Positions 5,349 through 61,710 of a DNA stretch of 64,000 nucleotides are shown here, one piece after another; positions within the stretch are counted from its first letter, which is position 1, and each line of letters starts with the position of its first letter. This DNA comes from an uncultured bacterium (lineage in GTDB: Bacteria > Patescibacteriota > Dojkabacteria > J137). Below the pieces are notes generated by a model. It searched no databases. It was not told where the DNA came from and worked only from the letters and a program-made list of their open reading frames with translations. A program made the position numbers and the translations under genes. Where the stretch lies: assembly GCA_963700155.1 (NCBI GenBank), contig OY969472.1, positions 517,059-581,058 of the forward strand, in the 5' to 3' direction.

Positions 5349-6563
5349 TTAAAAACTTAGCGTTGGGTCTCGATCGATTTGATCAAAATCTTTTAAATAA
5401 ATATTTTCTGAAGGATTATGTTTTATTTCTGAAATTTTTGAAAGCTTAACATTCGCAGCAACTGCAATCATAGCTGCATTATCTCCAGTCAATTTCTTTG
5501 AATATGGGAATCGCATTTTAATATTATTTTCTTTACAAATTACCCTAAATTCAGATCTCAATCTTGAACTAGCTATAACGCCGCCGCCAAGCCAAAGTTC
5601 TTTAGGTTGGTATTTCTGAATTGCTTTTCGAAGCTTGAACTTAAGCTGTTCAAGGGCGGCGGCTTCAAATACTACACACAAATCCATAATTTGTTCTTTT
5701 GTTAATCCGCCTTTTGATTTATCAGAATACAATCCTTCGATTTCTTCTTTGTGGCTTATAGTTTTGTTTAACAATTTCTCTACTAATTGCTTAAATGCTG
5801 TTTTTACTCCTGAATAACTGAAGTTTAAGTCACCAGATCTAATCATCGCTATCGGCAACATATATTCTGCTTTTGTATTTTTATTTGTACACTTTACTGA
5901 AGTACTTAGATTATCTTTAACAATTTCAATTTTCATATTTTTTCTTTGTCTTTTTGCAAATTCAGTAATAATCGGACCTGCAGGATATCCAAGTCCTAAA
6001 ATCCTTCCGCATTTATCATAAGCTTCTCCACATGAATCGTCTAAAGTTTCCCCTAGTTTTTCATATTCACCCCAGTTTTTTACAAGAATTAATTCAGTAT
6101 GGCTTCCAGAAACTAAAAAACCTAATGTTGGAAATTGCTGATCATTAACTTTGGTTTCAAAATCTAACTCTTTTAATTCTGATTTTCTCTCGGCGAAAGC
6201 TGAAAGAAGATGTCCTTCCATGTGATTTATTAAAATAAGTGGTTTATTATATTCAACACTCAAAGCTTTCGCCTTTTTAACTCCAATTTCTAAAGCTATT
6301 GCCAATCCTGGACCAATAGTTACTGCAACAGCATCAATATCCTTCATTTCTAAACCGGCTCTTTTCAAAGCTTCAATAACAACATTATCTATTCTTTCTG
6401 CATGTGCTAATCTTGCAAGATTAGGCACAACACCTCCATATTTTTTATGAAATTCCATTTGAGATGGCTGGACATTTGAAAGTACAGTAAAACCTCGGAC
6501 AACTGAAGCCGATGTTTCATCACAAGATGTATCTATTCCTAGTGTTAAAAAGTCTTTATGCAT
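5349..6563 (-). CDS. tsaD: tRNA N6-adenosine threonylcarbamoyltransferase TsaD (with about 65 aa of extra insertions)
   Basis: LGIDTSCDETSASV, GGVVPNLARLAHAE, INHMEGHL, LVSGSHTEL, GGGVIAS. I place the start at MHKDF (6563). The ORF-track start at 6599 would overlap the upstream gene by 20 nt. Confidence 0.9.
   Translation of the reverse strand: MHKDFLTLGIDTSCDETSASVVRGFTVLSNVQPSQMEFHKKYGGVVPNLARLAHAERIDNVVIEALKRAGLEMKDIDAVAVTIGPGLAIALEIGVKKAKALSVEYNKPLILINHMEGHLLSAFAERKSELKELDFETKVNDQQFPTLGFLVSGSHTELILVKNWGEYEKLGETLDDSCGEAYDKCGRILGLGYPAGPIITEFAKRQRKNMKIEIVKDNLSTSVKCTNKNTKAEYMLPIAMIRSGDLNFSYSGVKTAFKQLVEKLLNKTISHKEEIEGLYSDKSKGGLTKEQIMDLCVVFEAAALEQLKFKLRKAIQKYQPKELWLGGGVIASSRLRSEFRVICKENNIKMRFPYSKKLTGDNAAMIAVAANVKLSKISEIKHNPSENIYLKDFDQIDRDPTLSF
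5580..5663. repeat. 9-bp all-GC inverted repeat, 66-nt spacer, inside tsaD
   Basis: GCCGCCGCC (5580-5588) / GGCGGCGGC (5655-5663). Confidence 0.9.
6192..6273. repeat. 10-bp inverted repeat, 62-nt spacer, inside tsaD
   Basis: GGCGAAAGCT (6192-6201) / AGCTTTCGCC (6264-6273). Confidence 0.9.
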
Positions 6564-6579
6564 GGGTGTATTATAGCAT

Positions 6580-7074
6580 TTACTGCCCCAATAAATCATC
6601 TAAAGTAGCTGTAGGCTCTTCTTTGGAAGGTAAAAGATTCAAGTAATTTCCCGTATTACAAAATAAAGCAATCATCTGTTCAAATGCATCTATCATAAAC
6701 CTATTATCTATACCTAAAAAATTATAATCTATATTAAAAAGGCTTAATCTCTGGGAAATTCTGAATATCATCTCTTCGCAGCACTGTATTTCAAAATCAG
6801 TTGAAAAATAATAATCACCACCATGAATATTTAATTCCATTTCTATATTTTTAATTTTTTGTTTTCCTCTTTCAGTTAAATGAAAAGTTTTTAACTCCCC
6901 GTCTTCAGTCGGATTATCGTATTCTATATAGCCATCTCTAACAAAAATGTCTAATCTGGAAAAGAAATTTCTTATAGCTAAAGATTCTCTTTCGATTTGA
7001 ATTTCTGAAGGTTGAATTTTAGGAATCGTGGGAAGTCTTATTCCTTTATATTTTTTATAAAAAAGTTTATCCAT
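6580..7074 (-). CDS. hypothetical protein (possible N-terminal winged-helix)
   Basis: 164-aa ORF packed tightly between the hydrolase gene and tsaD. No confident motif. Confidence 0.45.
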   Translation of the reverse strand: MDKLFYKKYKGIRLPTIPKIQPSEIQIERESLAIRNFFSRLDIFVRDGYIEYDNPTEDGELKTFHLTERGKQKIKNIEMELNIHGGDYYFSTDFEIQCCEEMIFRISQRLSLFNIDYNFLGIDNRFMIDAFEQMIALFCNTGNYLNLLPSKEEPTATLDDLLGQ

Positions 7075-7576: not shown

Positions 7577-7578
7577 TC

Positions 7579-8765: not shown

Positions 8766-9641
8766 ATGAACTTAATAACCAGAGATAAAAAATTCATGAA
8801 TACAACAATCACCTTTAAAGTTGTTAAAGGTGATGTAACAACTGTAAAAACCCTAGATTCAATTGAAGCGGCTTTTGGTGAATTTGACAGAATTGTAAAA
8901 CAATATACAAGGTTTGATGAAAACTCTGAACTTTCAAATTTAAATAGAAATAGTGGTAAATGGGTCAAAGTTTCAAGCGAGTTTTTTTGGCTCATAGAAT
9001 ATATGCTTAAACTTGCCAAAAAAACTCGCGGTGCATTCGACCCAACAGTAATAGATTTTCTTGAAGTCTATGGCTATGATAAAAACTATGACTTCTCAAA
9101 ACTTAATAATCCAGAACTTGATAAATTAGTTGAAAAAATCAGTAAAACAAGAAAGTCATGGAAAGATGTTGAATTGAAGAAAAAGAGTAGCGAAGTAAAA
9201 TTGGCAAAGGTCCAAAAAATTGACTTAGGTGGAGTAGGTAAAGGATATGCAATAGATTGTGCTTTTGAAAAATTAAAACAAGTTTCAGATAATTTTCTTA
9301 TTGATGCTGGTGGAGATGTTAGAGCATCTGGCACTAATGAGAAGGGTGAATTATGGAAGGTTGGAATGAAAGATAGAGCAGGAGAAATTGAAGAATTAAT
9401 CGGATATATCGAGCTTAATAATGAAGCCCTCGCATGCTCTGGATCATGGTCTAGAAGAGTGAAACAGTTCCACCATCTTATAAACCCAGCGACTGGAGTT
9501 CCTCAAAATTATTATCGGACAGTTTTTGTTCAAGCTCCTGATGGAATTACTTCAGATTCATGGGCAACTGCAGTTTTTGTTTCGGGAGAAAATGACTTAA
9601 AAATTCCTGAAAATATGAAGATATTCAAAATAACTAATTGA
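8766..9641 (+). CDS. apbE: FAD:protein FMN transferase ApbE
   Basis: SELSNLN, GAFDPTV, DLGGVGKGYAID, ACSGS, HHLINPATG. Confidence 0.8.
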   Translation: MNLITRDKKFMNTTITFKVVKGDVTTVKTLDSIEAAFGEFDRIVKQYTRFDENSELSNLNRNSGKWVKVSSEFFWLIEYMLKLAKKTRGAFDPTVIDFLEVYGYDKNYDFSKLNNPELDKLVEKISKTRKSWKDVELKKKSSEVKLAKVQKIDLGGVGKGYAIDCAFEKLKQVSDNFLIDAGGDVRASGTNEKGELWKVGMKDRAGEIEELIGYIELNNEALACSGSWSRRVKQFHHLINPATGVPQNYYRTVFVQAPDGITSDSWATAVFVSGENDLKIPENMKIFKITN

Positions 9642-10983: not shown

Positions 10984-11513
10984 GAATTTATTTTATCATT
11001 TTCAACTTTTTCATTAATCTTTTTCATTCTATGTCTTATGAAAGGATTTATTGTTGATATGAATATTATTTCAATAATCAATGCCGAAACTGGTACAAGA
11101 ATGATTACAGAAGATTCAATTACTGATAATCTCATATAGATTACTAGGCCTATTACAGCTGTTATAAGCACGGCCCTTCTTATTGAATTATAAAGAGATG
11201 GTGCATCATAATAACTTTTAAAAAACAACTTATCTAAAAACAAATGAAGGGCCGTGCAAAAACTTAAGATTGCTGCAAGAAATACTCCAAATGCAAGGTA
11301 TGTAACGTTCGTTAAATACTGAAATATCAAACCTTTATCAACTATTCCTCTAATAACTTCATTTAGCTTATCCCAATCTCCGGGATTTATGGCATTAGAA
11401 GTAATAAGTTCGTTAATTTTATTCGCATCGAATGGCGAAAATTCTTTTAGAATATATATTAATATTAAGGTAAAGAATCCTCCTAAAATTGTAAAAATCA
11501 AAGCATTTTTCAT
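10980..11513 (-). CDS. hypothetical multi-pass membrane protein
   Basis: 177-aa hydrophobic ORF with a 4-nt overlap onto the downstream gene. Confidence 0.5.
   Translation of the reverse strand: MKNALIFTILGGFFTLILIYILKEFSPFDANKINELITSNAINPGDWDKLNEVIRGIVDKGLIFQYLTNVTYLAFGVFLAAILSFCTALHLFLDKLFFKSYYDAPSLYNSIRRAVLITAVIGLVIYMRLSVIESSVIILVPVSALIIEIIFISTINPFIRHRMKKINEKVENDKINS
11168..11257. repeat. 12-bp inverted repeat, 66-nt spacer, inside the membrane-protein gene
   Basis: GCACGGCCCTTC (11168-11179) / GAAGGGCCGTGC (11246-11257). Confidence 0.9.
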
Positions 11514-13201: not shown

Positions 13202-14431
13202 ATGTACAAAATTAATATGCGAAAAAAAATATTAATAAGCTTTATCTTTTTACAAGTTATTTTAATATTAGGCTCAGGTTTTGTAAGTGCTGATGATATT
13301 CAAAGCTTATCCACTCTTAATATTGACACTTCTATCACAGTAAAAGATACTACTGGTTTTGGAGATCCCACACAGATTATTGTTACTCCTGTTTTTATTA
13401 ATAATGGAACAGAAGTAAACACAGATAAATGGGTTAGAGGTATTTATTATTACACTATCGATAAATTAGGATTTCAAAACATTCCTTTTCATTATTTAAT
13501 TACAGAAGATGGTGGAGTTTTTAAAGGTAACAGCTCAGGTGATGAGAAAAAAATTAACATAGAAGGAATTGGCGATAATGCAGTTGTAGTTGGATATTTA
13601 AGTACAGATGAGGCGGGCGCTATAGCGCCCGCCTCAGAACAACCATTATCAAATCTGCTGCTAAATATAGCTAATCAAGATTCTATAAATCCTGAAAATA
13701 TATCAGCAAGTGGAATAAATTTTATTAAAGATAGTTCAAGCAATACAATAACAATTCAAAAAGCTAAAGTTGGGAGTGAGTGGAGTATAGGTATTAATAA
13801 AATTGTAAATAATATTAAAAATAAGTATTCTCCAATTACAAAAAAATATAGCGTTGAAATAACTCAGGTTACATTACCAACAAACGAAATAACACCTGGT
13901 GATGAAGCTACAGTCTCGATTAAAATAAAAAATACTGGTAAGAATGGATTTTATAGTGGTGCTAATTCTGAAATACTTTTAACAAAAGATAATGGAATTT
14001 CCAGCAACTTCTATATAAATAATACATGGCTCAGCCAAACTCAAACTGGAATAATGTCAGATGGTATATCTCTTCTCCCAGGTGAAGAAAAAGGGTTTGA
14101 TTTTAAAGTCAAAGCTCCACTGGCAACCGGAGATTATTCAGAAAACTTTATTTTGAAAACTGCAGGTGGAACTACTATAAAAAGTAACAAAAATATTGAG
14201 TTAAAAATTAAGTTAAAAAAAACTAATAAACAAATTATTGAGATAAAAACAAGCTATGATTATGTAAATGTAAGAAGCAAACCTTATGATTCAGCCCCTG
14301 TTTTAAGAAAAGTTACTGCAGGAGAAAGATATTTCCTTCTAGATCTAAATGAAGATACCCTTTGGGCAAAAATTGACTTAGGGGGTGGAGTAGAAGGTTA
14401 CCTTCCCGCTTGGGATTTGAAATATATTTAA
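13202..14431 (+). CDS. secreted cell-wall-associated protein: amidase_2/PGRP-like N-domain, Ig-like middle domain, C-terminal SH3b
   Basis: Signal/TM N-terminus. IPFHYLITEDGGVFKGN resembles amidase_2. C-terminal VNVRSKPYDSAPVLRKVTAGERYFLL..WAKI is SH3b-like. Confidence 0.5.
   Translation: MYKINMRKKILISFIFLQVILILGSGFVSADDIQSLSTLNIDTSITVKDTTGFGDPTQIIVTPVFINNGTEVNTDKWVRGIYYYTIDKLGFQNIPFHYLITEDGGVFKGNSSGDEKKINIEGIGDNAVVVGYLSTDEAGAIAPASEQPLSNLLLNIANQDSINPENISASGINFIKDSSSNTITIQKAKVGSEWSIGINKIVNNIKNKYSPITKKYSVEITQVTLPTNEITPGDEATVSIKIKNTGKNGFYSGANSEILLTKDNGISSNFYINNTWLSQTQTGIMSDGISLLPGEEKGFDFKVKAPLATGDYSENFILKTAGGTTIKSNKNIELKIKLKKTNKQIIEIKTSYDYVNVRSKPYDSAPVLRKVTAGERYFLLDLNEDTLWAKIDLGGGVEGYLPAWDLKYI
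13609..13636. repeat. 28-bp perfect GC-rich palindrome inside the amidase-like/SH3b gene
   Basis: TGAGGCGGGCGCTATAGCGCCCGCCTCA. Encodes ..DEAGAIAPASE.. Confidence 0.95.
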
Positions 14432-14442: not shown

Positions 14443-15930
14443 ATGCCAAAGGTAAAAATAATACTAATTATTGTTTTTGTGCTTTCTTTTTTTGTTAGTT
14501 TATTGCTTTTTCTAAAGTTTAATACTGTTGGATTTGAACAATCATTTAGGGCATATTTGGCATGGTATAACCCGACTGATGATAATTTAAAAAATTTCTA
14601 TGATATTTCGACTAGTCAAAATTTTTTATCTTCATTAAATTTTGAAAATCAGACTTTTAAAAACGGGACTGAATTGTTTGATTTCTTAAGGAATGAACAA
14701 AAGACAAACAATTCAGTCCCCGCAGTAGCTAAAGATAATCGAGACAGCAAAGTTCCAATTCAATTTGATGAAGAGAATATTGACGATACAAACCTTCCTC
14801 AGAAAATTACTTATGTATCACCTGGAGTTCTTGGATACTATGTATATAATTATGATCTAGTAAGATTCTCTCCTGATAAAAATACTCTTGAAAGCAAATA
14901 TTTAAATTTAAAAGAGAGTACTATTGATCCTATTTCAAAAAAGAATGTTACTGGTACAAAAGATTTAAAAACAGCAAAGACAGAAGTTAATAGTTATTTT
15001 AATAAACTTATAACTGATGTTGGCAATACAAACACATATGATGGCTTAACAAAAGAGAGTTTTAAAAAACTTGAAAACCACGAGGTTCTTGAAAATATTT
15101 CAGTTAATTCAATAAATTTTGTTGAAAAGAACTTTAAAGAAACTGAATTAAAAGATAACAAATTAATTATTGGAACGATAAATATTCACTTAGAAAACTG
15201 TTTTAAAGATTTTTCAGAAGATTTGAGTTTTTCTATCAATACCGGTGACATTCAAATTAATGACTTAAATGATTTTGTAAGTAACTTATGTAAAAAGCAA
15301 TTCGTTAAAGTTAATGGGGTAATTACCGGAACTTGTACTGATTGTACTTATTATCCAGCTGATAAATGGCATGCTTTAAGATCTGACTATACTCCCAAAA
15401 CTCAATTGATTGATTTCGCTCCGGGAGGACAATATATTAATACACAAGCATATAACGACTTTAAAGATTTATACAACGCAGCAAAAGCAGATGGAATATA
15501 TATTTATGTAACTTCAGGCTATCGTTCTTACAATACTCAAGTTGCGACATATCAAGGCTGGGTAAACACTGAACTTGCTGCTGGTTATTCTTTGTCTGAG
15601 GCAGAAGCTATTGCTAATACTTATTCAGCTCTTCCTGGGTACTCAGAGCACCAGCTTGGAACAGCGTTAGATTTAAATGGAGCAGGATGTGAAATTTCTG
15701 ATGGATATTGTTCAACAAACGAAACAATCTGGAACTGGCTTGCGGAAAATGCTTATAAATATGGGTTTGCACAATCATACCCTGAAGGAAAAGAGTCAAT
15801 TACAGGATATACCACCGAAAGGTGGCATTACAGGTGGATTGGGAAAGACTTAGCTGAAGAATATAAAAAAGCTGGAGGAGGAACAAAAATTACTTTAAAT
15901 GTATTTTTATTGAATAAAGGATTATATTAA
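14443..15930 (+). CDS. D-alanyl-D-alanine carboxypeptidase, peptidase M15B (VanY-like), membrane-anchored
   Basis: N-terminal TM. C-terminal SGYRSYNTQ, GYSEHQLGTALDL, ERWHYRW zinc-site motifs. Confidence 0.8.
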   Translation: MPKVKIILIIVFVLSFFVSLLLFLKFNTVGFEQSFRAYLAWYNPTDDNLKNFYDISTSQNFLSSLNFENQTFKNGTELFDFLRNEQKTNNSVPAVAKDNRDSKVPIQFDEENIDDTNLPQKITYVSPGVLGYYVYNYDLVRFSPDKNTLESKYLNLKESTIDPISKKNVTGTKDLKTAKTEVNSYFNKLITDVGNTNTYDGLTKESFKKLENHEVLENISVNSINFVEKNFKETELKDNKLIIGTINIHLENCFKDFSEDLSFSINTGDIQINDLNDFVSNLCKKQFVKVNGVITGTCTDCTYYPADKWHALRSDYTPKTQLIDFAPGGQYINTQAYNDFKDLYNAAKADGIYIYVTSGYRSYNTQVATYQGWVNTELAAGYSLSEAEAIANTYSALPGYSEHQLGTALDLNGAGCEISDGYCSTNETIWNWLAENAYKYGFAQSYPEGKESITGYTTERWHYRWIGKDLAEEYKKAGGGTKITLNVFLLNKGLY

Positions 15931-17583: not shown

Positions 17584-18666
17584 TTAATATCTATCCTTTC
17601 TATAACTCCAGAAATCTATAGCTCTATGTAGTAAATATCTTAAATTATCATTATAAATTTCCATTGGACCAACATAATTAATTTCCTTTCCACCAAAACT
17701 TCTCTTGAATTCAGAAACCCCATTCATAGGATTTTTTGCCTTCTTGTTTTCAGGTAAAGATTTAGGCAGAATTCCCCACATATTATATTTTCTGAAACCT
17801 TTTTCTTTAGCATATTTCATTATCTCCCACTGTAAAAAATATGGAGAGCGGAGCTTTGACATAGTTCTATCAGATGTAGAAGCTCCATGAGTATAATAAG
17901 CTGTTTCATTATAGTAATTAATCAAAGCTCCGCTAATATATTTGGCTCTATATCTTGCTAAGAATATATCCGTCATTCCTTTAGGATTCAATGCATCAAA
18001 CTGCTTTTTGAAATATTCAAAATCATAGTTTCCAAAACCTTTTCTTTGAGTAGTTTCATTCATCAAATCTGAAAAGGCTTTAACTTCTTCAATTGTAGTA
18101 GCTTTTACTAATTCTAGTTCACTTCTTGATGACCGATTTATATTATATCTGGTCGAATCGCTCATTTTCGAGCGCAACTCATCCTCATTTTGATCTAAAT
18201 CTAACTCCCAGACATCTTTAGCTTGAGCAGGGGCGAGGGATGTTTTAAAGCCTAAATTCTTTAAATTTTCACTATATTTTTTAGGGAGCAGTGGATCAAA
18301 TCTGAAAAGAGTAAGGAAATTTTGGAATATATAATCCTGCATAAAGTTTTTTAACTGTGTAAAAAAATCTGCAAATTCTTGTTCATTCATAGGATCACCA
18401 ACTATAACTGGTCCATATGGAACATAAGCATATTTTATAAATTTCCTTCTGTAAATTTCTATATATAAAATTCCTATTTCATATTCTCTGTCGCCAACTT
18501 CAAGGATAATAAAATATTGATCAATTTCTTTTCCTAATGATTTTTGAAAATCGATCCAATTAATTGAAGAAAGAAATGAAGAATTTTCTGCTTCTAAATT
18601 TATTTTTTCCCATATTTGTTTTTTATCTTCACTATATTTTTCAAATTTTAGTAGCACAGAAATCAA
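17584..18666 (-). CDS. FemAB-family aminoacyltransferase (second copy)
   Basis: SINWIDFQKSLGK, YYTHGASTS, VSEFKRSFGG. TTG start in the ORF track; the exact start is uncertain. Confidence 0.75.
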   Translation of the reverse strand: MISVLLKFEKYSEDKKQIWEKINLEAENSSFLSSINWIDFQKSLGKEIDQYFIILEVGDREYEIGILYIEIYRRKFIKYAYVPYGPVIVGDPMNEQEFADFFTQLKNFMQDYIFQNFLTLFRFDPLLPKKYSENLKNLGFKTSLAPAQAKDVWELDLDQNEDELRSKMSDSTRYNINRSSRSELELVKATTIEEVKAFSDLMNETTQRKGFGNYDFEYFKKQFDALNPKGMTDIFLARYRAKYISGALINYYNETAYYTHGASTSDRTMSKLRSPYFLQWEIMKYAKEKGFRKYNMWGILPKSLPENKKAKNPMNGVSEFKRSFGGKEINYVGPMEIYNDNLRYLLHRAIDFWSYRKDRY

Positions 18667-20542: not shown

Positions 20543-20651
20543 ATCTAAATATAATTTTTAATAAGTAGTTATTTTTAGTTATAGTGTCTGTTGATATGTG
20601 TATATGTTTTAATAATAGCTTATAGAACTTACATTTTCAATGATTTTGAGG

Positions 20652-20806: not shown

Positions 20807-20856
20807 CTGAATAATATTACTGTACAAGAATTATATTAATATTCTATAATCCATAC

Positions 20857-21795: not shown

Positions 21796-21800
21796 ACTTA

Positions 21801-22523: not shown

Positions 22524-22528
22524 TAAAT

Positions 22529-23938: not shown

Positions 23939-24022
23939 AGGTTTAAAGTAATGGTTAAAGAATATATACTTAAATGAAATAAGTATTTGCAAAAGCTATT
24001 TTTTTAGTGCTGAATTTTTTTA

Positions 24023-47810: not shown

Positions 47811-48800
47811 TTACTGATTTAGGTTTAAGTTAACCCAAGTATTAAAGACATCTAAGGAATTATTTTTTGGATCAATTAACCCAGTGGTTTTAAAGGGTTT
47901 AGGATAATTATTTGAGTCATACAAAAATGGCCAGATAATGAATTTCATATGTAATGATTTTGATAAATTCGGGATCATCTCTACATACTTGATTTGTTCT
48001 TCTGCAGAACTTTCCCATCCAGAAATTCCTTCATCTTTAAACCATGCAGTTTCTGTAATTGCAATTGGCTTATCTGTTTTTGCAGAAATAACGCTCCAAT
48101 AATCTGAAGGAATTTCTGACGGATCTTTATAAATTAATCCTGGATAAGTTGTAAATGCTAAAAAATCAGCATTATCAAATTTTGATAATATTTCCCATTG
48201 TGTTTTTGTTTCATCATTTACTCCACCAAATAATCCGCCGTTTAAGCCTTTAAGATTTTCATATTGAAACACTGTGAATATCTGAGTCTCAGGACTTGTT
48301 GTTTTTACTAATTCATAAAGCTGGTTAAACCATGTGCTGAATCTATCTAAGTCACCTGATAACTCTTTATTAATTTCATTTCCGAATCCAAGATATTTAG
48401 GATTATATGTTTTCACAAATTGAACAATTGCTTTGTTATATTCATTTTCTTGTATAAGTGAAGGGATCTCTTTAACACCGATAATAATTACCGGGGTTAA
48501 GTTGTATGAAGGAGCGGCTTTCATTAAGAAAGCCGCTCCTGAGTTCTCATCTAAAATGTCAGAAATATTTCCTGCCCAAGATACTACTTTGCAGCATTCT
48601 TTTGTTTTTGTAAAGAAATCGTCAATTCCAGATTGACTATAATCATTAGGTGATAAACTAAGTCCTTTTTGAGTTGATTCTGAAGTATTTTGAACTAAAT
48701 TTGAATTTCTGCTATTTAAGAATAATCCAATTATTAAAACAATAATTAGACTAACAACAAGGATTCCAATAAAGATTGAGATTAATAATTTCTTATTCAT
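47811..48800 (-). CDS. membrane-anchored clan GH-A (TIM-barrel) glycoside hydrolase-like protein
   Basis: FGNEINKE (acid/base NE) and ITETAW (nucleophile E) motifs. I moved the start to MNKKLL (48800) because the ORF-track start at 48902 runs into tRNA-Arg. Confidence 0.5.
   Translation of the reverse strand: MNKKLLISIFIGILVVSLIIVLIIGLFLNSRNSNLVQNTSESTQKGLSLSPNDYSQSGIDDFFTKTKECCKVVSWAGNISDILDENSGAAFLMKAAPSYNLTPVIIIGVKEIPSLIQENEYNKAIVQFVKTYNPKYLGFGNEINKELSGDLDRFSTWFNQLYELVKTTSPETQIFTVFQYENLKGLNGGLFGGVNDETKTQWEILSKFDNADFLAFTTYPGLIYKDPSEIPSDYWSVISAKTDKPIAITETAWFKDEGISGWESSAEEQIKYVEMIPNLSKSLHMKFIIWPFLYDSNNYPKPFKTTGLIDPKNNSLDVFNTWVNLNLNQ
48510..48540. repeat. 13-bp perfect hairpin with a 5-nt loop, inside the GH-A-like gene
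   Basis: AGGAGCGGCTTTC-ATTAA-GAAAGCCGCTCCT. Confidence 0.95.
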
Positions 48801-51290: not shown

Positions 51291-51774
51291 ATTTTCAAAA
51301 AATATTCCACAAGATTTGGAACTAATTTTTATACTTCAAGATGTAGAAGATCCATATAATGTCGGAAGCATATTTAGAACTGCTGATGCTTGTGGAGCTG
51401 GAATAATATTAACTGGAAATACACCAACTCCAGGAAAAACTCCTGAAATTTCAAAAAATTCTATGGGAATGGAGCGGAAAGTAGATTGGCAGTATTATGA
51501 AAATATTGAAGAAGTAATCGGGAGTTTAAAACAAAATGGTTTTGATATTGTAGGAATAGAAGTTACAGAAGATGCTGTGTCATACGATGAATATGCTTAC
51601 AAACGCAGAACTGCATTAGTACTGGGGAATGAAGCCATTGGGATTTATAAGAAAAATCTGGGCCTTTGCAATAAAATTGTATACATTCCAATGCTGGGCA
51701 AAGGCCCCTCTCTCAACGTAAATATAGCCGGAGCTATTGTAGGGTATGAGATAATTAGTAAGAATAAATCTTAA
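51244..51774 (+). CDS. SpoU/TrmH-family RNA 2'-O-methyltransferase
   Basis: DPYNVGSIFRTADACGA, LVLGNEAIGI, IPMLGKGPSLNVNIAGAIVGYEI. Confidence 0.85.
   Translation: MSKPLTNTKIKALNKEFSKNIPQDLELIFILQDVEDPYNVGSIFRTADACGAGIILTGNTPTPGKTPEISKNSMGMERKVDWQYYENIEEVIGSLKQNGFDIVGIEVTEDAVSYDEYAYKRRTALVLGNEAIGIYKKNLGLCNKIVYIPMLGKGPSLNVNIAGAIVGYEIISKNKS
51660..51707. repeat. 10-bp inverted repeat, 28-nt spacer, inside the SpoU/TrmH gene
   Basis: GGGCCTTTGC (51660-51669) / GCAAAGGCCC (51698-51707). Confidence 0.9.
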
Positions 51775-52397: not shown

Positions 52398-54164
52398 ATG
52401 AAATCTAAGTTCAACTTAATTACTAACTTTCTTTATAATCATAAAAAAGGTATTTTATTCATACTTGTAGTATTAACCGTTCTATTTATTTTCTTTAGAC
52501 TTCCAAACAATATTCTTCTAGGAACTTCTGGTGATAGTGGGATTATAAATTACACAATAATTGATAATATCCAGAAAATTAAGAATGGGCAATTTAGCGA
52601 GTTAATTAACAGGTACATTTTTTATCCGGAAAGTAATACTCTTGCTTTCACTGACTCATTTTTGCTGCATAGTTTGATTGGATTACCTTACTACTTATTA
52701 ACAAATAATGTTTTTGGGACATACAATTTCATTTTTATTGTGCAGATTCTAATAGCAGCTAGTGGTTTTTACTTTTTAGCAAAAAAGTTTACAAAAAATA
52801 TATTTTTAATAACTTTTGCAGGTTTGTTTTATCTTTTCCTCCCAGCATTTATAGGAACTCATCCGCAAATTAATTTTTATGGATTTATTCCATGGATGGT
52901 TTTTTTTGTCATTGAGTTTATAGAGCGTAAACAAATTCGCTTTTTATATTTATCTTCTCTGGCATTCTTTTTACAAGCGTTGGTAGGCATTTATTTGCAG
53001 GTATTTATGTTTATTTTTACTCCCGTGTTTTTATTTGGAGCAATTTATTATTTATACCGTAAGAGAATCCTTAAGAAATTTATAAATAAGAAAATACTAA
53101 TAAATATTGGACTTATCATAATAATTTTAGGAATATTGTTTTTCATAATTAATAAACCATACTTAGATTTCAAGTCTGAATACGACACTGTAAGAACTCC
53201 AGAAGAGATTTTGTTTTATGCTCCTCATGCATTATTAAGTTATTTTTTACCAAATAGAACTTCAGCTTTTGGAGATGTTATAAAAAATATATTTCAGATT
53301 CCACAGCCACAAAGCTCAGAAGGCAATTTATTTTTAGGTTTTACTGGAGTTCTTTTGTGGATTGGATCTTTAGTTGTTGTATTAATATCTTTGATAAAAC
53401 CTAAATTGAAAAAAACTTTACCTAACAAAACGATATTGTTTGCTTTAATAGGCTTTATTACTCTTGTTTGGGTTTTGAGTTTAGGAACCTATTTAAAATT
53501 TCCTTTGCCTGGTAATGTGATGATCCCTCTTCCTTATTTGCTTTTATATAATTTAAGTTCTGTCTTTGGAGCTATTCGAGCAACTGGACGAATGGTAGTA
53601 CTTATGGCTTTACCTTTATCTTTACTTATTTTAGTTTGGGGTGAATTTTTGCTTAAGAAAAAATCTAGGCTGGCACATATTATATTAATATTTATATTTG
53701 GTTTAATAATTCTCGATATTTTTAAGATTCATAGTTTACAAACTTTACCTGAACTACCTATTTCTTTATATCAACAAGTTGAAAATCTTCCAGGAAAGAC
53801 TTTTTTAGAGCTTCCAAGTGGATACCAATGTGAAAAGCTGAAAGTTTATAAAAATTGTGATTCAATAGAGGATGATTTTTATATGTTTATGCACATTTAT
53901 CATAATAAATGGCTAATTGGAGGGTATAGCGGATATACTCCGGAAAATACTATTAATATTATGAATAATATTGATCAGTTTTCTGTTGATTCTAAAAAGT
54001 TAGATAAATACTTGGAAAGTATTCCTGTTGATGTAATTTTGATTGATTACTCTAAGATTCCAGATTCTGTAAGAGGTAATTTTAAGAATTTTAATAACTT
54101 GAAAGACTATTCTGTAGTAGAAGCGGGTGATGAAAATTATTTATTATTAACACGAGTTTTATAG
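52398..54164 (+). CDS. large polytopic membrane protein (possible GT-C-fold glycosyltransferase)
   Basis: About 12 or more TM segments followed by a soluble C-terminal domain. Family call is by architecture only. Confidence 0.35.
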   Translation: MKSKFNLITNFLYNHKKGILFILVVLTVLFIFFRLPNNILLGTSGDSGIINYTIIDNIQKIKNGQFSELINRYIFYPESNTLAFTDSFLLHSLIGLPYYLLTNNVFGTYNFIFIVQILIAASGFYFLAKKFTKNIFLITFAGLFYLFLPAFIGTHPQINFYGFIPWMVFFVIEFIERKQIRFLYLSSLAFFLQALVGIYLQVFMFIFTPVFLFGAIYYLYRKRILKKFINKKILINIGLIIIILGILFFIINKPYLDFKSEYDTVRTPEEILFYAPHALLSYFLPNRTSAFGDVIKNIFQIPQPQSSEGNLFLGFTGVLLWIGSLVVVLISLIKPKLKKTLPNKTILFALIGFITLVWVLSLGTYLKFPLPGNVMIPLPYLLLYNLSSVFGAIRATGRMVVLMALPLSLLILVWGEFLLKKKSRLAHIILIFIFGLIILDIFKIHSLQTLPELPISLYQQVENLPGKTFLELPSGYQCEKLKVYKNCDSIEDDFYMFMHIYHNKWLIGGYSGYTPENTINIMNNIDQFSVDSKKLDKYLESIPVDVILIDYSKIPDSVRGNFKNFNNLKDYSVVEAGDENYLLLTRVL

Positions 54165-54911: not shown

Positions 54912-54920
54912 TTTTATCAA

Positions 54921-56070: not shown

Positions 56071-57948
56071 TTATCCAAATGGAGATTTTAGTTTTATATT
56101 ATCTTCCTCTTTTTCCTTAGTCTTAGTTTTAACATCTTTAACTTCATTCTTTTTATGCTTTCTTTTCCTGACTCGTAAAATAATGAAGATCAAGATTATA
56201 GCGATAGGAACTGCTTCTATTATAGTTTTAACAACACTTCTTAAAGAATTATCAGGAACAATATTAAAGAGAAGAGAATCAATCCTTTGATCAATTGAAT
56301 AAGTAAAGAGGTTTATTGAACTAGTTGCATCTGAAAGAACCTGCCAGATAGAGGTATTTTTTGGATATTTTTGGATTAGGTCATCTTCAGTCATCGCATT
56401 CTTTGTCTTTGTTACAGCACTATCGGCAGGTTCTATATCATCTTCTCTTTGCGGAACATCCAAGCTCCCATAAAATGAAACTTCTGTTGAACTCGGAGTA
56501 TTTGGATCAACCGAAGCTACATGTGTATAAAAATGGTTTAAATCTCCTCCAATAACTGCAGGACCATTTTCACCCCAAGTTGTATCAACCGGAATCCATG
56601 AATTGATTCCAGGAACATAAACTTCTGCCCATTGGTGGTTTATTGTATTGTCCTGAGTTGAGAGATAATCAATTGCTGAATATGCGTGCCCAAAAGCTCC
56701 TCGGGCAGGAACTCCCATTGCACGCATCAATGCAATAAATAAATCCGAATATTCCATACAGACGCCTGAACCGTTTTGCAAAGTTGCTAATGCTCCTTGT
56801 CTTTGATTTAATCCGAACCTTTTAACATTGTCGTAGTCAATTTTATCTACAACAAATTTGTATGTTTTATCCACTAAATTATATACATTAGTCTCTGAAC
56901 CTTTGATAGTGTTTGCAGCTTGTTGGATCTGAATAGCTGCGCTTTCCCAGTATTTAGCATTTGCCAGATCTGTTTGAAATTCAGATTTATTAACATCAGA
57001 TAAATTTCCTGAGTCATTTGGATTTAACTTTAGATTCTGATCTAAAATTCCATATCCTTTAACTTCAATTGTTCCAGATGCATTTGAAGGGACTCTGAAT
57101 TCTGCAATTAAATTCCCATCAGAGTCTTCATAAACAGTTGTTGGTTCTGGATCTAACTTTGTGAAGTACACTTTTTGATTTATATGCCCCGATTTTATAT
57201 TTCTTGGCAGTATTATTTTATATGTATTATATGGGAATGGGATTGTTGTACTTGGTGTGTATGGCTGTTTTAAATCAAAAGAGTAGTATTGAGTTTTTCC
57301 GATTTGGATCCATCCAGTTTCTCCAACAAGCTGCTCCTGATTATAGTCTACGACCCAGAAATTATTTGATTTTTTTATTCCTACTTCCGGTGCAGTAAAG
57401 TTAATCTCGCCAAAATTCGTAGGAATTTTGGCTTCGGTAGTAACAGTTTCTTTAGAATTCCCACTTTCAAAGACATAATCTTTTGAAAAAGCTGGAATAT
57501 AAAAGTCTCGAATTGCTCCGCTTTTTATCAAAAGCCCATAAGAAATATAGCTTAGAGTAACTTTATATGAATTCCCATAGTTAATATTAGAAGGGAATCT
57601 TATAATAATTTGTAAGTTGTCACCTGAGGTTTTCTGTGATTCATAACTAAGCTTTATGCCATAGCTATCAATAATGCTAATAGAGTTCAATGTCTTTTGT
57701 AGTTTATTAGATTGCTTTGGGTCTCCTTTAAAAGGATTGAAAATTATGAATGATTCTTCGGTTCCTGCTGGTATGTACCATGAAGATTGAGTGATATTAA
57801 TCGTTTTGGTTTCAGTAACCTTAACTGAATCATCTTGAGCTTCATAAACTCTATCATATTGCTTATTAATTATCGCAGCTTTTACCTTTATAGAAAAAAA
57901 GGTAAGCATTACTGGAACAGCTAGAATTATGAAAAGATATTTTTTCAT
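56071..57948 (-). CDS. secreted, C-terminally anchored transglutaminase-like (Cys-His-Asp core) protein
   Basis: Signal peptide. GSGVCMEYSDLFIALMRAMGVPAR (Cys), HQWAEVY (His), PVDTTW (Asp). C-terminal TM plus a basic tail. Confidence 0.8.
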   Translation of the reverse strand: MKKYLFIILAVPVMLTFFSIKVKAAIINKQYDRVYEAQDDSVKVTETKTINITQSSWYIPAGTEESFIIFNPFKGDPKQSNKLQKTLNSISIIDSYGIKLSYESQKTSGDNLQIIIRFPSNINYGNSYKVTLSYISYGLLIKSGAIRDFYIPAFSKDYVFESGNSKETVTTEAKIPTNFGEINFTAPEVGIKKSNNFWVVDYNQEQLVGETGWIQIGKTQYYSFDLKQPYTPSTTIPFPYNTYKIILPRNIKSGHINQKVYFTKLDPEPTTVYEDSDGNLIAEFRVPSNASGTIEVKGYGILDQNLKLNPNDSGNLSDVNKSEFQTDLANAKYWESAAIQIQQAANTIKGSETNVYNLVDKTYKFVVDKIDYDNVKRFGLNQRQGALATLQNGSGVCMEYSDLFIALMRAMGVPARGAFGHAYSAIDYLSTQDNTINHQWAEVYVPGINSWIPVDTTWGENGPAVIGGDLNHFYTHVASVDPNTPSSTEVSFYGSLDVPQREDDIEPADSAVTKTKNAMTEDDLIQKYPKNTSIWQVLSDATSSINLFTYSIDQRIDSLLFNIVPDNSLRSVVKTIIEAVPIAIILIFIILRVRKRKHKKNEVKDVKTKTKEKEEDNIKLKSPFG

Positions 57949-58445: not shown

Positions 58446-58507
58446 AAAGCAGGGAAGAAATTTTGCTTGAGGTGTTAATATTTAAATAGATTTATTAAGA
58501 AAATTTT

Positions 58508-58945: not shown

Positions 58946-58999
58946 ATATAGCTAAGTATAAATGCTAATATCCCAGTATATTTGTAAAACAATTAAATT

Positions 59000-59440: not shown

Positions 59441-59562
59441 TACTCTCTATCTTTGTCAGAACTTTGTAAAAACTCTATGGTAAGATGTTACAGCCGGATT
59501 TTAAAAATGAGTATACTTGCTATAGAATAATCTCCGACATATAAATCTTAAACTAAGAGTTG

Positions 59563-61710
59563 ATGCTTGATCTAAAAATTCTCAATTCACCACAAAAAGA
59601 TGCGGTAGAAGCTACTGACGGTCCAGTATTAGTTTTGGCCGGCGCGGGAAGCGGTAAAACTAGAGTTTTGACTTATAGAATTGCCTATATTTTAGATTCA
59701 GGACTCGCCGGCCCTGATAATATATTGGCTATGACTTTCACAAATAAAGCAGCCGCAGAAATGAAAGAGAGAATAAAAGCTCTTTTAGAATCAACAGATA
59801 TGCAGTCGCCAATCTCAAATTTGTTCTGGATGGGAACTTTTCATTCAATCTGCGTAAAGATTTTAAAGATGAACGGTCAACTAGTAGGAATTGGACGAAA
59901 TTTTACAATTTATGATTCTGCAGATCAGGTTGTTGCAGTAAAAGAAGCAATGAAGCGATTAGATATATCAATCAAGGATTTTAATCCAAATGCTGTTCAT
60001 TCATATATTTCATCTGCGAAAAATGAGCTTGTTGATGCTGAAATGTACAATTCTTATGCACAAGGATATTTTCAACAGGTAGTTGCAAAGATATATCCTG
60101 TCTATCAAAAGGTTTTGAGGGAAAATAATGCGGTTGATTTTGATGATCTACTTTTTTATACAGTTCAGCTGTTTAGAGAAAATAAGAATATTTTAGAGTT
60201 TTACCAAGATAAGTTTAAATATATTTTAGTTGATGAATATCAGGATACTAATCACGCACAATATATTTTGATTAATATGTTAGCCGAAAAGTATAGAAAT
60301 ATCTGTTGTGTAGGGGACGATGATCAGAGTATCTATGCTTTCAGGGGTGCAACAATAAAAAATATTTTAAATTTTGAAAAAGATTATCCGGAATCAAAAG
60401 TAATAAAGTTAGAGCAGAACTATAGGTCTACTAAAAAGATTTTAGAAGCTTCGCATCAAGTCATTAGCAAGAATAAAGGTAGAAAAGAGAAAAAGCTTTG
60501 GACTGAAAATGATGATGGCGAACAAATAACTTTGTATACAGCATCAAATGAAATTAATGAGGCAAACTGGATTGTTAAAAAGATTATAGAATTGAGCAAA
60601 GATATGGATTTAAGTAATTTTGCAGTTTTATATAGAACAAATGCTCAGTCAAGAAGTTTAGAAGAAGCATTTATTCAAGAAGCTTTACCCTATAGAATTG
60701 TCGGAGGCCTTCGCTTTTATGACAGAAAAGAAATTAAAGACACTCTCTCTTATTTAAAAATTATTTATAACCCAAAAGATAATAAAAGCCTGGAACGTAT
60801 TATCAATGTTCCAAAGAGAGGGGTTGGTGATAAAACTGTTCAAGGTTTCGAAGCGAAGGCCTCCGAACAAAATAAAAGTGCAGTTGAATATCTTTTAGAA
60901 AACTCTGAAGAAATAACGAATACTGGACTCTTAAATTTTTCATTTATAATTCGAGATCTTTTTGAAAAATCCAAAGAATTAAATATTGTTGAACTTATTA
61001 ATTATATTCTTGAAAAAACAGGTTATATAAAAATGCTTGAAGATGGAACTTTAGAGAATGAATCCAGAATTGAAAATTTGAAGGAGCTTATCTCTGTAGC
61101 TTCGGCTTTTGAAGATGAAACACCGGAAGAAGGTTTAGAAAAATTCCTTGATGATGTAAGTCTTCTTGAAGGTGCAGGGGAAGAAGATGTTAATGCAAAA
61201 TCTAGTGTTACTTTGATGACAATTCATGCAGCAAAAGGTTTGGAATTTGAGTATGTTTTTGTAGTTGGAATGGAAGAAAACCTTTTCCCGCATTCGAATT
61301 CACTCATGGATAATAATGAGATGGAAGAAGAGCGAAGGTTAGCTTATGTTGCAATAACAAGAGCTAAAAAAAGATTGTTTTTGACCCATGCAGTAAAACG
61401 AAAATATTTTGGTATTAATCAAAATAATCCTATTTCCAGATTTATTGGTGATATTGATGATGAACTTTTAGAAAAAGATGCAGACTATATGTATGTTGGT
61501 CCAACTGAGGAATATACTTCAAAATCTTATGATGAATCTTATGAATGGATGGATGATCTTCATTTACAAACTGGTGATAAAGTAAAACATGAGTATTTTG
61601 GCAAGGGAACTGTAAAAAGAATTGATGGAACTAATGTTGTTATTGATTTTGGACCTGTTTATGGTGAAAAAGAATTAATGCTTGAATACGCCAAGCTTGA
61701 GAAAATATAA
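59563..61710 (+). CDS. pcrA: ATP-dependent DNA helicase PcrA/UvrD (SF1)
   Basis: AGAGSGKT, TFTNKAA, VDEYQDTN, GDDDQSIYAFRGA, YRS, TIHAAKGLEF, VAITRAK. Confidence 0.92.
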   Translation: MLDLKILNSPQKDAVEATDGPVLVLAGAGSGKTRVLTYRIAYILDSGLAGPDNILAMTFTNKAAAEMKERIKALLESTDMQSPISNLFWMGTFHSICVKILKMNGQLVGIGRNFTIYDSADQVVAVKEAMKRLDISIKDFNPNAVHSYISSAKNELVDAEMYNSYAQGYFQQVVAKIYPVYQKVLRENNAVDFDDLLFYTVQLFRENKNILEFYQDKFKYILVDEYQDTNHAQYILINMLAEKYRNICCVGDDDQSIYAFRGATIKNILNFEKDYPESKVIKLEQNYRSTKKILEASHQVISKNKGRKEKKLWTENDDGEQITLYTASNEINEANWIVKKIIELSKDMDLSNFAVLYRTNAQSRSLEEAFIQEALPYRIVGGLRFYDRKEIKDTLSYLKIIYNPKDNKSLERIINVPKRGVGDKTVQGFEAKASEQNKSAVEYLLENSEEITNTGLLNFSFIIRDLFEKSKELNIVELINYILEKTGYIKMLEDGTLENESRIENLKELISVASAFEDETPEEGLEKFLDDVSLLEGAGEEDVNAKSSVTLMTIHAAKGLEFEYVFVVGMEENLFPHSNSLMDNNEMEEERRLAYVAITRAKKRLFLTHAVKRKYFGINQNNPISRFIGDIDDELLEKDADYMYVGPTEEYTSKSYDESYEWMDDLHLQTGDKVKHEYFGKGTVKRIDGTNVVIDFGPVYGEKELMLEYAKLEKI
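59637..59713. repeat. 8-bp all-GC inverted repeat, 61-nt spacer, inside pcrA (Walker A region)
   Basis: GGCCGGCG (59637-59644) / CGCCGGCC (59706-59713). Confidence 0.85.
60701..60866. repeat. 16-bp perfect inverted repeat, 134-nt spacer, inside pcrA
   Basis: TCGGAGGCCTTCGCTT (60701-60716) / AAGCGAAGGCCTCCGA (60851-60866). Confidence 0.9.

Follow-up and report, generated by a model that had tools for sequence, protein, structure and literature searches.

Perfect inverted repeats within the genes of one Dojkabacteria subclade, a probable footprint of replication template switching

In bacteria (Proteobacteria), an excess of short perfect inverted repeats and their conservation have been attributed to template switching (Lavi et al. 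2018, PMC5941160, where the literature on the quasi-palindrome hotspot in thyA of E. coli is also cited). Perfect 'coding palindromes' were described in Nematomorpha mitochondria (2019, PMC6649704), and the authors propose template-switch conversion and possibly a parasitic, function-free nature. Template-switch mutations are also known to create and maintain RNA hairpins (Monttinen and Loytynoja 2022, PMC8794818). All three are precedents for the repeats considered here; in view of the first two, a sequence-only reading of this DNA, which knew of no described element class, put this too strongly.

The genome is that of a tiny uncultured bacterium from Candidatus Dojkabacteria. We analysed a 64-kb stretch of it (the window) and about 20 kb from each relative. 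Seven inverted repeats had been noticed in the window beforehand. All are exact, with spacers of 61-70 nt, and they belong to a larger population; the observation is thus real and was even understated. A window-wide scan for strong perfect repeats (arms of at least 12 bp, or shorter arms with enough G/C) yielded 36, versus about 4.5 expected from Markov shuffles. Elements of the window are given below, with no strand assigned (.) to any of them; the initial seven are marked 'first set'.

949..1057, perfect repeat, 17-bp arms, 75-nt loop, alpha-amylase gene (Pfam)
2299..2446, perfect repeat, 14-bp arms, 120-nt loop, TP_methylase gene
3133..3222, perfect repeat, 12-bp arms, 66-nt loop, ComM/Mg-chelatase-like gene
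3244..3382, perfect repeat, 12-bp AT-rich arms, 115-nt loop; weak and possibly due to chance
3248..3294, perfect repeat, 14-bp AT-rich arms, 19-nt loop
3706..3729, tight GC-rich hairpin, 10-bp arms, 4-nt loop, within ComM-like CDS
3757..3781, tight GC-rich hairpin, 11-bp arms, 3-nt loop, within ComM-like CDS
4359..4406, perfect repeat, 10-bp arms, 28-nt loop, ComM-like gene
5580..5663, perfect repeat, 9-bp arms GCCGCCGCC, 66-nt loop, tsaD; first set
6192..6273, perfect repeat, 10-bp arms, 62-nt loop, tsaD; first set
8977..9029, perfect repeat, 15-bp arms, 23-nt loop, apbE
11168..11257, perfect repeat, 12-bp arms, 66-nt loop, small ORF without Pfam match; first set
13609..13636, 28-bp perfect palindrome (14+14, loop 0), within SH3-domain protein gene
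14665..14720, perfect repeat, 16-bp arms, 24-nt loop, VanY-family gene
17847..17934, perfect repeat, 13-bp arms, 62-nt loop, FemAB-family gene
19659..19752, perfect repeat, 15-bp arms, 64-nt loop, dnaN
23051..23106, perfect repeat, 9-bp arms, 38-nt loop, dnaA
24263..24369, perfect repeat, 16-bp arms, 75-nt loop, putative origin region upstream of dnaA
24986..25029, perfect repeat, 12-bp AT-rich arms, 20-nt loop
27811..27845, perfect hairpin, 15-bp arms, 5-nt loop, ftsK
29597..29692, perfect repeat, 16-bp arms, 64-nt loop, SAM-methyltransferase gene
29888..29985, perfect repeat, 14-bp arms, 70-nt loop, SAM-methyltransferase gene; first set
32851..32897, perfect repeat, 12-bp arms, 23-nt loop, MGDG-synthase-like gene
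35227..35374, perfect repeat, 12-bp arms, 124-nt loop, dnaJ G/F region
39572..39662, perfect repeat, 12-bp arms, 67-nt loop, murE motifs SAGLRD / TAEDPR; first set
39705..39800, perfect repeat, 14-bp arms, 68-nt loop, murE, 3' arm in lineage-specific insertion; first set
44806..44861, perfect repeat, 12-bp arms, 32-nt loop, argS
48020..48118, perfect repeat, 14-bp arms, 71-nt loop, hypothetical gene
48510..48540, perfect hairpin, 13-bp arms, 5-nt loop, within hypothetical gene
51660..51707, perfect repeat, 10-bp arms, 28-nt loop, SpoU methylase gene
53192..53354, perfect repeat, 11-bp arms, 141-nt loop, hypothetical gene
56336..56434, perfect repeat, 10-bp arms, 79-nt loop, transglutaminase-like gene
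59637..59713, perfect repeat, 8-bp arms, 61-nt loop, pcrA Walker A / GLAGP; first set
60701..60866, perfect repeat, 16-bp arms, 134-nt loop, pcrA

Arms of at least 12 bp with spacers of 60-79 nt occur 11 times in the window versus 0.4 expected. The synonymous-shuffle control proposed with the original observation was run on 200 codon-preserving shuffles, each gene being shuffled within itself. The excess persists: 15 repeats have arms with at least 5 G/C and spacers of 60-79 nt, versus a mean of 0.5, and the shuffle maximum is 2 in either 10-nt bin. Direct repeats show no enrichment. Imperfect stems with spacers of 60-79 nt are at the background level (2 and 0 seen versus 1.4 and 0.4 expected), and the excess is limited to perfect Watson-Crick stems. 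The claim that nearly every GC-rich patch has a partner was overstated, as 16 of the 61 8-mers with at least 7 G/C have an exact partner within 150 nt; in shuffles this holds for 0-2 of about 40 such 8-mers.

Almost all strong repeats (33 of 36) lie in ORFs, and 91% of the window is coding. Spacers and most arms align with orthologs, arm sequences are unique to each pair, and any codon phase is used without bias (14/10/10); therefore the repeats are not insertions, in frame or otherwise. The arms contain about 55% G/C versus 30% in the genome. The concentration of rare G/C-ending codons in the arms is also borne out: the arms hold at least 4 of the 9 CGC codons and at least 4 of the 11 CGG codons in the window, and relative codon frequency averages 0.35 there versus 0.52 overall. 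On the other hand, the arms do not draw on synonymous sites only, since several change amino acids at conserved positions (KF to AP, R to W, A to P, I to V).

One such case is the repeat at 29888. Its orthologs carry AAAT-AGAGGA-TGGC / GCCA-AAGTTT-ATTT, in which 4+4 bases that already pair flank a 6-nt bubble. In the window clade a multi-nucleotide rewrite of the 3' arm has turned the bubble sequence AAGTTT into GCCCCG, which matches the CGGGGC of the partner arm as its exact reverse complement, and the conserved Lys-Phe into Ala-Pro. The best synonymous pairing of KF with RG is 3/6. The bearers form one clade in the neighbour-joining tree. The stem is perfect in four lineages, the window, L016, L017 and L021 (at least 12 bp, loop 70 nt), and persists in proteins that have diverged by about 25%. 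Within the clade three paired double substitutions arose independently with pairing kept throughout; in each, one change is synonymous and the other alters an amino acid (R to W, I to V, A to P). In the formal count 81% of cells are paired versus 41-48% in slid registers, and 10 cells have changed on both sides; 5 of 500 shuffles reach this value.

In murE, the repeat at 39572 is identical in the window, L022 and L011, extended to 17 bp in L011, and absent from L021, the closer relative. Only 4 of 221,184 synonymous combinations (1 in 55,296) pair fully, and these differ at one base outside the arm, leaving a single arm solution.

Elements also turn over. The argS repeat (44806) pairs 12/12 in L022 and 11/12 in L021, and that at 32851 still pairs 12/12 in L021 via a compensatory double change; thus the compensatory change sought in orthologs was found, here and at 29888. 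Pairing in L022 is 9/15 for dnaN (19659) and only 5/13 for the FemAB-family gene (17847), and is 5-6/9 in orthologs of dnaA (23051). Orthologs of the ftsK hairpin (27811) pair 7-10/15, both arms having changed, E to D included, and those of the transglutaminase-like gene (56336) are unpaired. The repeat at 29597 is window-specific. Its 3' arm lies within a variable segment, as does that of the pcrA repeat 60701, where the 5' arm shows I/V to L; the 3' arm of the dnaJ repeat (35227) falls within a lineage-specific insertion. The repeat at 24263 extends over the 3' end of ORF 24346-25131 as well as intergenic sequence upstream of dnaA. The pcrA repeat 59637, the weakest of the first set, is due to a directly repeated hexamer, GCCGGC, which is self-complementary, and pcrA of L023 pairs in a different register (16 bp, 35-nt loop).

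An 8-40x excess was observed in independent assemblies (NCBI, JGI, Logan) of one Dojkabacteria subclade, and it is absent from more distant Dojkabacteria. Most repeats are lineage-specific.

Between 40 and 99 nt there are 14 strong repeats, every one of them with a spacer of 62-79 nt (binomial P = 2e-7), and there are voids at 40-59 and 80-110 nt. Further spacer classes of the window are 0-5, 19-38 and 115-141 nt. Thus the narrow spacer of about 65 nt noticed originally is indeed the largest class, but it is one mode among several and differs between lineages, the loop length being 68 +/- 4 nt in the window clade versus 33 +/- 3 nt in a sister clade. Protein-allowed complementarity is flat over all spacers in the window, therefore the mode is not due to protein architecture. 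This lineage-specific loop 'ruler' (about 67 versus about 33 nt) is what is new here. A speculative possibility is that the loop may correspond to single-stranded DNA wrapped on one SSB tetramer, with about 33 and about 67 nt matching both wrapping modes. SSB tetramers of the E. coli type have modes (SSB)35 and (SSB)65 with occluded sites of about 35 and 65 nt, and certain SSBs have a single binding mode only (Kozlov and Lohman, bioRxiv 10.1101/2020.12.05.412478). The likeness is one of coinciding numbers and an analogy only, drawn from SSBs of the E. coli type. In a literature search nothing connected the wrapping of SSB with the distance of template switches, and we know of no such connection.

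We consider it likely, with a probability of roughly 0.6, that the repeats are the footprint of short-range replication template switching (quasi-palindrome correction, arm conversion). The evidence thus favours the third candidate of the sequence-only reading, template-switch or gene-conversion maintenance. Where nearby gene stretches are by chance partly complementary, the nascent strand may occasionally pair with the opposite arm and copy a few bases from it, and one arm would then become an exact reverse complement of its partner. After a stable perfect stem, usually G/C-rich, had formed, the same process would continually convert arm to arm. A mutation in a single arm would be erased or copied across, and therefore the arms would stay perfect and evolve in concert, sometimes bringing amino-acid changes with them, even in conserved motifs. 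Which events survive would be decided by purifying selection acting on the encoded protein, and the process would be greatly elevated in one Dojkabacteria subclade. The excess, its limitation to perfect stems and to one clade, the multi-nucleotide rewrite, the paired changes, the turnover and the lineage-specific loop lengths are shown; from this evidence, all of it comparative, we infer replication template switching as the agent, with no function required. Template switching itself is a known mechanism; the density proposed here, inside bacterial genes, is unusual. Some observations fit less well. Rare G/C-ending codons often occur in both arms and both arms have changed, therefore several events, or a bias or selection for stable stems, would be needed. 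Under a simple fold-back model one expects a gradual fall with distance, not the voids or the sharp mode at 62-79 nt. Loop inversion, the hallmark of inter-strand switching, was not seen in the orthologs examined.

Strong selection for pairing would account equally well for the persistence of 29888 and for the recurrent murE solution. The stems could then be selected secondary structure (mRNA stability, processing or ribosome pacing, or single-stranded DNA) arising by point mutation, an explanation that we regard as rather improbable. It would account for pairing kept with compensatory changes over four lineages, the unique murE solution in three, the G/C enrichment with rare codons on both sides, and the tight constraint on loop length; about 33 and 67 nt are close to one and two ribosome footprints. 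However, imperfect or G.U-containing stems are not in excess, sense-strand wobble at stem ends being at expectation (10 G.U versus 10.6), and an Rfam search gave no match. The repeats occur in housekeeping genes of every kind without preference for a gene class, relative positions within genes are uniform, and codon phase is unbiased. The loops are not conserved and show no more structure than random CDS does (mean z = -0.05). Thus there is no sign of a function specific to host genes. The majority of repeats are unshared even with relatives at 70-78% protein identity, the six-base KF to AP replacement is an unlikely stepwise path, and a shared function is hard to picture at about one element per 1.8 kb. 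Lacking G.U tolerance, position bias and loop structure, the selected-mRNA reading gained nothing. The earlier interpretation is supported in part: the evidence backs coding location, rare codons, an excess over synonymous shuffles and compensatory change in orthologs, but not mRNA structure or a universal spacer.

Intragenic invertons have inverted repeats around a short segment inside genes, and a recombinase flipping the spacer of about 65 bp would recode the protein. This is very improbable. All arm pairs differ, therefore there is no common recombinase site, and a recombinase gene is absent from the window. The frame stays open after inversion in only 1 of 13 elements versus 14% of random segments, and spacers are collinear with orthologs. 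This explanation is largely refuted.

Small palindromic mobile elements inserted in frame (Rickettsia palindromic elements, MITEs, REPs) are known inside genes of AT-rich reduced genomes (PMC6649704), but are refuted as an explanation by the ortholog alignments: spacers and most arms are homologous with length unchanged, loop lengths are identical across orthologs. The copies also share no consensus. The repeats are not discrete genetic elements with a common sequence. A few AT-rich members (3244, 24986, 26037) may be due to chance, short AT-rich repeats being generally frequent. For the whole, chance, composition, or an assembly or sequencing artefact is refuted by enrichment 30-fold over synonymous and 8-fold over Markov shuffles and by independent assemblies, made in different projects, in which the same sites are perfect and their arms co-vary.

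Template switching, the preferred explanation, links these repeats to the described systems. As with RNA hairpins (PMC8794818), a perfect stem would stem from one event and multi-base compensation from copying the opposite arm; those are RNA genes with short loops (4-nt enriched), whereas here the sequence is protein-coding and the loops are 33 or 67 nt. The Nematomorpha palindromes (PMC6649704) are likewise perfect repeats within protein genes with both arms coding, 'binary' identity (imperfect ones are not in excess) and dynamic gain and loss between species. However, they have arms of up to 284 bp, an animal organelle and a pairing-phase bias, whereas here the arms are 8-17 bp, the phases show 14/10/10, and long unstructured loops of fixed size lie on a bacterial chromosome. 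The repeats of PMC5941160 share perfect arms above chance with an excess rising with arm length, correction from imperfect to perfect, concerted arm conservation and copies without consensus. They were analysed in non-coding regions, with spacers capped at 70 bp and no preferred spacer reported; here, in contrast, the repeats are inside genes, override conserved residues, reach 8-40x only in one CPR subclade, and have sharp lineage-specific loop modes.

The seven inverted repeats first noted, which begin at 5580 and 6192 (both in tsaD), 11168, 29888, 39572 and 39705 (both in murE) and 59637 (pcrA), are all exact and have spacers of 61-70 nt. Elements are named below by these window starts. A scan of the whole window demonstrated that the seven are part of a larger population. 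A perfect inverted repeat was considered strong if its arm had at least 12 bp, or at least 9 bp with at least 6 G/C, or at least 10 bp with at least 5 G/C. The window, with a G+C content of 30.2%, contains 36 strong repeats, compared with about 4.5 in second-order Markov shuffles. For arms of at least 12 bp and spacers of 60-79 nt, 11 repeats were observed and 0.4 expected; in the same comparison, direct repeats showed no excess in the window. The control proposed in the sequence-only reading, permutation of synonymous codons inside each gene, gave the same picture: 15 repeats with at least 5 G/C in the arm occur at 60-79 nt, whereas the mean over 200 shuffles was 0.5, and no shuffle had more than 2 repeats in either 10-nt bin of this range. 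The sequence-only reading overstated the share of GC-rich patches with a partner, said to be nearly all: 16 of 61 patches have one, compared with 0-2 of about 40 in the shuffles.

The narrow spacing of about 61-70 nt was confirmed in part. All 14 strong repeats with spacers of 40-99 nt fall within 62-79 nt (binomial P = 2e-7). However, further spacer classes of 0-5, 19-38 and 115-141 nt are present in the window. Site pairs that could be rendered perfectly complementary by synonymous choice were counted per spacer bin. Their distribution is flat, with about 800 pairs per 10-nt bin, and thus the mode is not made by protein architecture. A simple periodicity was also rejected: the Rayleigh scan produced no clean period, and separate modes for each lineage describe the spacers better.

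Within the window, which is 91% coding, 33 of the 36 strong repeats lie in ORFs. The genes carrying them are ordinary: tsaD, murE, pcrA, dnaA, dnaN, ftsK, dnaJ, argS, genes for methyltransferases and cell-wall enzymes, and others. (The tsaD ORF, 5349-6599, has 416 aa as listed, and its Pfam match spans residues 38-379; the listed start may lie upstream of the true one.) The relative positions of the elements along the genes are uniform, and the codon phases of pairing are 14/10/10. The arms have 8-17 bp; each arm pair in the window has its own sequence, with none common to different elements. The arm G+C content is about 55%. The atypical G/C-ending codons described in the sequence-only reading are indeed a property of both arms, where rare codons are abundant (mean relative codon frequency 0.35 in arms vs 0.52 overall); CGC occurs 9 times in the window and CGG 11 times, with at least 4 occurrences of each in arms. 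The excess is limited to perfect Watson-Crick stems, and imperfect stems with loops of 60-79 nt are at the background level. Several other structures of the window, with neighbouring genes, are as follows.

Further perfect structures, and genes near the probable origin
3706-3781: two tight GC-rich perfect hairpins of 10 and 11 bp with 3-4 nt loops, 28 nt apart, in the AAA+ domain of a ComM/Mg-chelatase-like gene
13609-13636: 28-bp perfect palindrome, TGAGGCGGGCGCTA/TAGCGCCCGCCTCA, in the CDS of an SH3-domain protein, encoding DEAGAIAPAS via rare codons
19397-20542, minus strand: dnaN
22529-23992, minus strand: dnaA
24263-24369: perfect inverted repeat with 16-bp arms, intergenic, upstream of dnaA
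61987-62010: GC-rich perfect hairpin with a 2-nt loop, intergenic, beside the small ORF 62033-62380 downstream of pcrA
62397-62446: GC-rich perfect hairpin with a 30-nt loop, intergenic, on the other side of the same ORF

The region 19397-25200 is probably that of the replication origin: the orientation of the genes changes within it, and near 24 kb the cumulative GC skew is at its lowest. The hairpins flanking ORF 62033-62380 could be terminators or small RNA; they had no Rfam match. Three successive ORFs on one strand at 58035-59440 (136-146 aa, without Pfam matches) are possibly tandem paralogues.

We compared the window with 24 related loci from NCBI, JGI and Logan assemblies. The nearest relatives are distant, the best matches in the collections being 75% (methyltransferase) and 70% (PcrA) identical. 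An 8-40-fold excess of perfect repeats was observed in one subclade, formed by the window, L001/L009 and L016 to L023, and was weaker in L011. Among the related loci compared, L002, L005, L010, L012 and others showed no excess. Codon alignments matched the loops, and the majority of arms, to homologous sequence of the same length in orthologs. Thus the elements are not insertions, in agreement with the sequence-only reading, which had argued this from the conserved protein motifs. No loop inversion, which inter-strand template switching should occasionally produce, was seen in the aligned orthologs, where few comparisons were possible. One NCBI accession, GCA_034680565.1 (source of L019, L020 and L023), contains at least two different Dojkabacteria genomes, with two separate dnaA-ftsK-methyltransferase loci whose repeat spectra differ; it behaves as a metagenome assembly rather than a single MAG.

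Element 29888 (14-bp arms, 70-nt loop) lies in a SAM-methyltransferase gene. In outgroups its 5' arm is AAAT-AGAGGA-TGGC and its 3' arm is GCCA-AAGTTT-ATTT, that is, a 6-nt bubble lies between two complementary 4-nt flanks. The window, L016, L017 and L021, which form one clade in the neighbour-joining tree, carry GCCCCG or a derivative of it in the 3' bubble, matching the reverse complement of the partner. The rewrite of AAGTTT to GCCCCG changed the conserved WMPKFIYK to WMPAPIYK. Since codons for Lys-Phe can pair with those for Arg-Gly in at most 3 of 6 positions, a perfect stem required amino acid replacement. Such a clustered multi-base rewrite bounded by prior complementarity is clear in this one element only. 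Within the clade the stem remains perfect (at least 12 bp, loop of 70 nt) across three paired double substitutions. Firstly, in the ancestor of L017 and L021, CGG was replaced by TGG together with CCG by CCA, changing R to W in the conserved TPNRGWPF motif. Secondly, L017 has AAT to AAC with ATT to GTC (I to V). Finally, L021 has GGC to GGG with GCC to CCC (A to P). In a formal count, 81% of cells are paired, compared with 41-48% in slid registers, and 10 cells are changed on both sides; 5 of 500 shuffles attained this number. As a conserved GGAATGTT/AACATTCC stem lies inside this element, we considered a model with an outer stem around an inner hairpin; as a general cause it was rejected, because loops of 60-79 nt are unstructured, folding no better than segments of CDS drawn at random (mean z = -0.05, n = 14).

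Element 32851 retains 12 of 12 pairs in L021 via a compensatory change of A:T to C:G. The test for covariation in orthologs thus yielded pairing-preserving paired changes, three in 29888 and one in 32851. The murE element 39572 (12-bp arms, 67-nt loop) is a unique nucleotide solution pairing AGLR with AEDPR: of 221,184 synonymous combinations 4 work, and the one base that distinguishes them lies outside the arm. The window, L022 and L011 (with the stem extended to 17 bp in L011) share this solution, which the closer L021 lacks. In the ftsK element 27811, both arms carry changes relative to the ortholog consensus, mostly from A/T to G/C. Most other elements of the window are unpaired in relatives, and thus the elements turn over. 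The 3' arm of the second murE element, 39705, lies in an insertion at 39760-39830 that is lineage-specific and adds about 17 residues to MurE (…ENGIDSSAQVDSSSVQV); among the relatives, additional sequence is present here only in L010.

The loop length differs between two sister clades.

Strong inverted repeats by loop length in the window clade (window, L016, L017, L021) and the sister clade (L018, L019, L023)
28-39 nt loops: window clade 7, sister clade 21
60-79 nt loops: window clade 20, sister clade 1

The difference is significant (Fisher's exact P = 5e-7), and remains so when the window is the only member of its clade included (P = 7e-6). In L023, 24 strong repeats were found in 22 kb vs 1.4 expected, 14 of them with loops of 28-39 nt. 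The inner loop has a smaller variance than the centre-to-centre distance or the outer span. In window-type lineages the main mode, taken from a wider pool (window, L016, L017, L021, L011, L009, L022), is 68.4 +/- 4.3 nt (median 67), with secondary modes at about 26 and 129 nt. The sister clade has its main mode at 33.3 +/- 3.3 nt (median 33) and a secondary one at about 103 nt. Beyond the window the mode of about 67 nt is replicated in part only, since several matches are orthologs of window elements; loops of 65-76 nt occur at six sites of relatives without a window counterpart (two in L021, one each in L016, L011, L009 and L022). The same two motifs of pcrA are paired in different registers: the window has 8 bp and a 61-nt loop, whereas in L023 (10086-10152) a 16-bp perfect stem with a 35-nt loop joins the Walker A codons (GSGKT) with the GLAGP codons. 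In L001/L009 (JAUQWV010000003.1, Ga0226835_1000179) perfect repeats are enriched about 12-fold and mostly have loops of 10-21 nt, which suggests a third regime, the numbers being small.

It is likely, with a probability of roughly 60%, that the elements are products of short-range replication template switching, that is, quasi-palindrome correction with continued arm conversion. A template switch would correct a quasi-palindrome, turning partly complementary arms into a perfect stem, and repeated conversion of one arm would then keep it matched to the other. E. coli and phage are established cases of quasi-palindrome correction by template switching. Several observations are its expected footprint: stems that are perfect only, the bounded six-base rewrite, concerted arm change with amino acid changes pulled into conserved motifs, unique arms, the lack of position or phase preference, and quick gain and loss. 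Of the three candidates listed in the sequence-only reading, template switching or gene conversion is therefore the favoured one. With donor and acceptor arms considered relative to the origin, acceptor arms tend to be in less constrained protein segments; any model predicts this, and it is thus uninformative.

A less probable possibility is an RNA or single-stranded DNA structure under selection, built by point mutation; it could also act on top of conversion. Its strongest points are the G/C enrichment on both arms, the long persistence of stems and the tight loop length. The pairing-preserving covariation agrees with it, but is equally expected from arm conversion. However, an RNA structure should tolerate imperfect pairing (G.U pairs, mismatches) on the transcribed strand, and this was not observed: mismatches flanking the stems include 10 G.U on the sense strand vs 10.6 expected, and G.U against A.C at stem boundaries gave no strand signature. 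Moreover, the window elements have no consistent placement relative to genes and no conserved loop, and none matched a curated RNA family, the only such matches in the window being two tRNAs. Intragenic invertons were rejected, as there is no common recombinase site and no nearby recombinase, and of 13 elements 1 would keep an open frame when inverted, vs 14% of random segments; indeed, the window contains no mobile-element, recombinase or ssb genes. In-frame palindromic mobile elements (RPE, MITE, REP) were rejected, as the arm sequences all differ without a consensus and there is no extra sequence relative to orthologs. An assembly artefact is excluded by the recurrence of the excess in independent NCBI, JGI and Logan assemblies.

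Template switching does not account for the spacing: with fold-back a smooth decay with distance would be expected, whereas voids and sharp clade-specific modes are seen. Tentatively, a physical ruler might fix the arm-to-arm copying distance and differ between the sister lineages, the simplest candidate being one SSB tetramer. The main modes of about 33 and 67 nt coincide with the sizes of the sites that E. coli-type SSB tetramers occlude in their two binding modes, and by this analogy we speculate that an SSB-bridged loop on a single-stranded template could bring the arms together. A loop of about 65 nt would lie on four SSB subunits in the window clade and one of about 33 nt on two in L018/L019/L023; loops of about 100 and 130 nt would be combinations. 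One and two ribosome footprints have similar sizes. We found no published link between SSB wrapping and template-switch distance. If SSB is such a ruler, the genome sequence records the in vivo SSB binding mode, and SSB-bridged hairpins of the lagging-strand template seed a self-perpetuating, function-free drive of coding hairpins, strong enough to overwrite conserved residues.

If template switching is the cause, a mutational process usually considered a rare hotspot affects hundreds of sites across a minimal bacterial genome: extrapolated at the density of the window, about one element per 1.8 kb, roughly 600 elements would be present in 1.14 Mb. The process would make G/C-rich patches of rare codons and force amino acid replacements in conserved motifs. 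Compensatory covariation would then arise without RNA function, a warning for covariation-based structure prediction. The onset within one clade suggests altered replication or repair, which comparative genomics could identify, and the sharp, lineage-specific loop lengths may offer a sequence-only read-out of replisome or SSB geometry for organisms beyond the reach of culture.

The class of mechanism is already known. What is new is the setting, inside essential genes of a CPR bacterial chromosome (the source of the window is a Candidatus Dojkabacteria genome), the density and clade-specific onset of the perfect repeats and, most importantly, a loop length that is quantised and differs between lineages. 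We found no description of such elements in Dojkabacteria or other CPR bacteria in the literature, and no precedent for sharp lineage-specific loops (about 67 vs 33 nt). Template switching has been invoked for the excess of perfect inverted repeats in Proteobacteria (PMC5941160), for RNA hairpins (PMC8794818), and for perfect coding palindromes in mitochondria of Nematomorpha, whose authors note binary identity and turnover (PMC6649704). The latter are the closest analogue: binary identity and turnover are common to both systems, and in both, perfect repeats lie in coding sequence and each arm encodes homologous protein sequence. However, the Nematomorpha palindromes have arms of tens to hundreds of bp, favour phase 1 and avoid phase 3, whereas the arms described here have 8-17 bp and nearly even phases.
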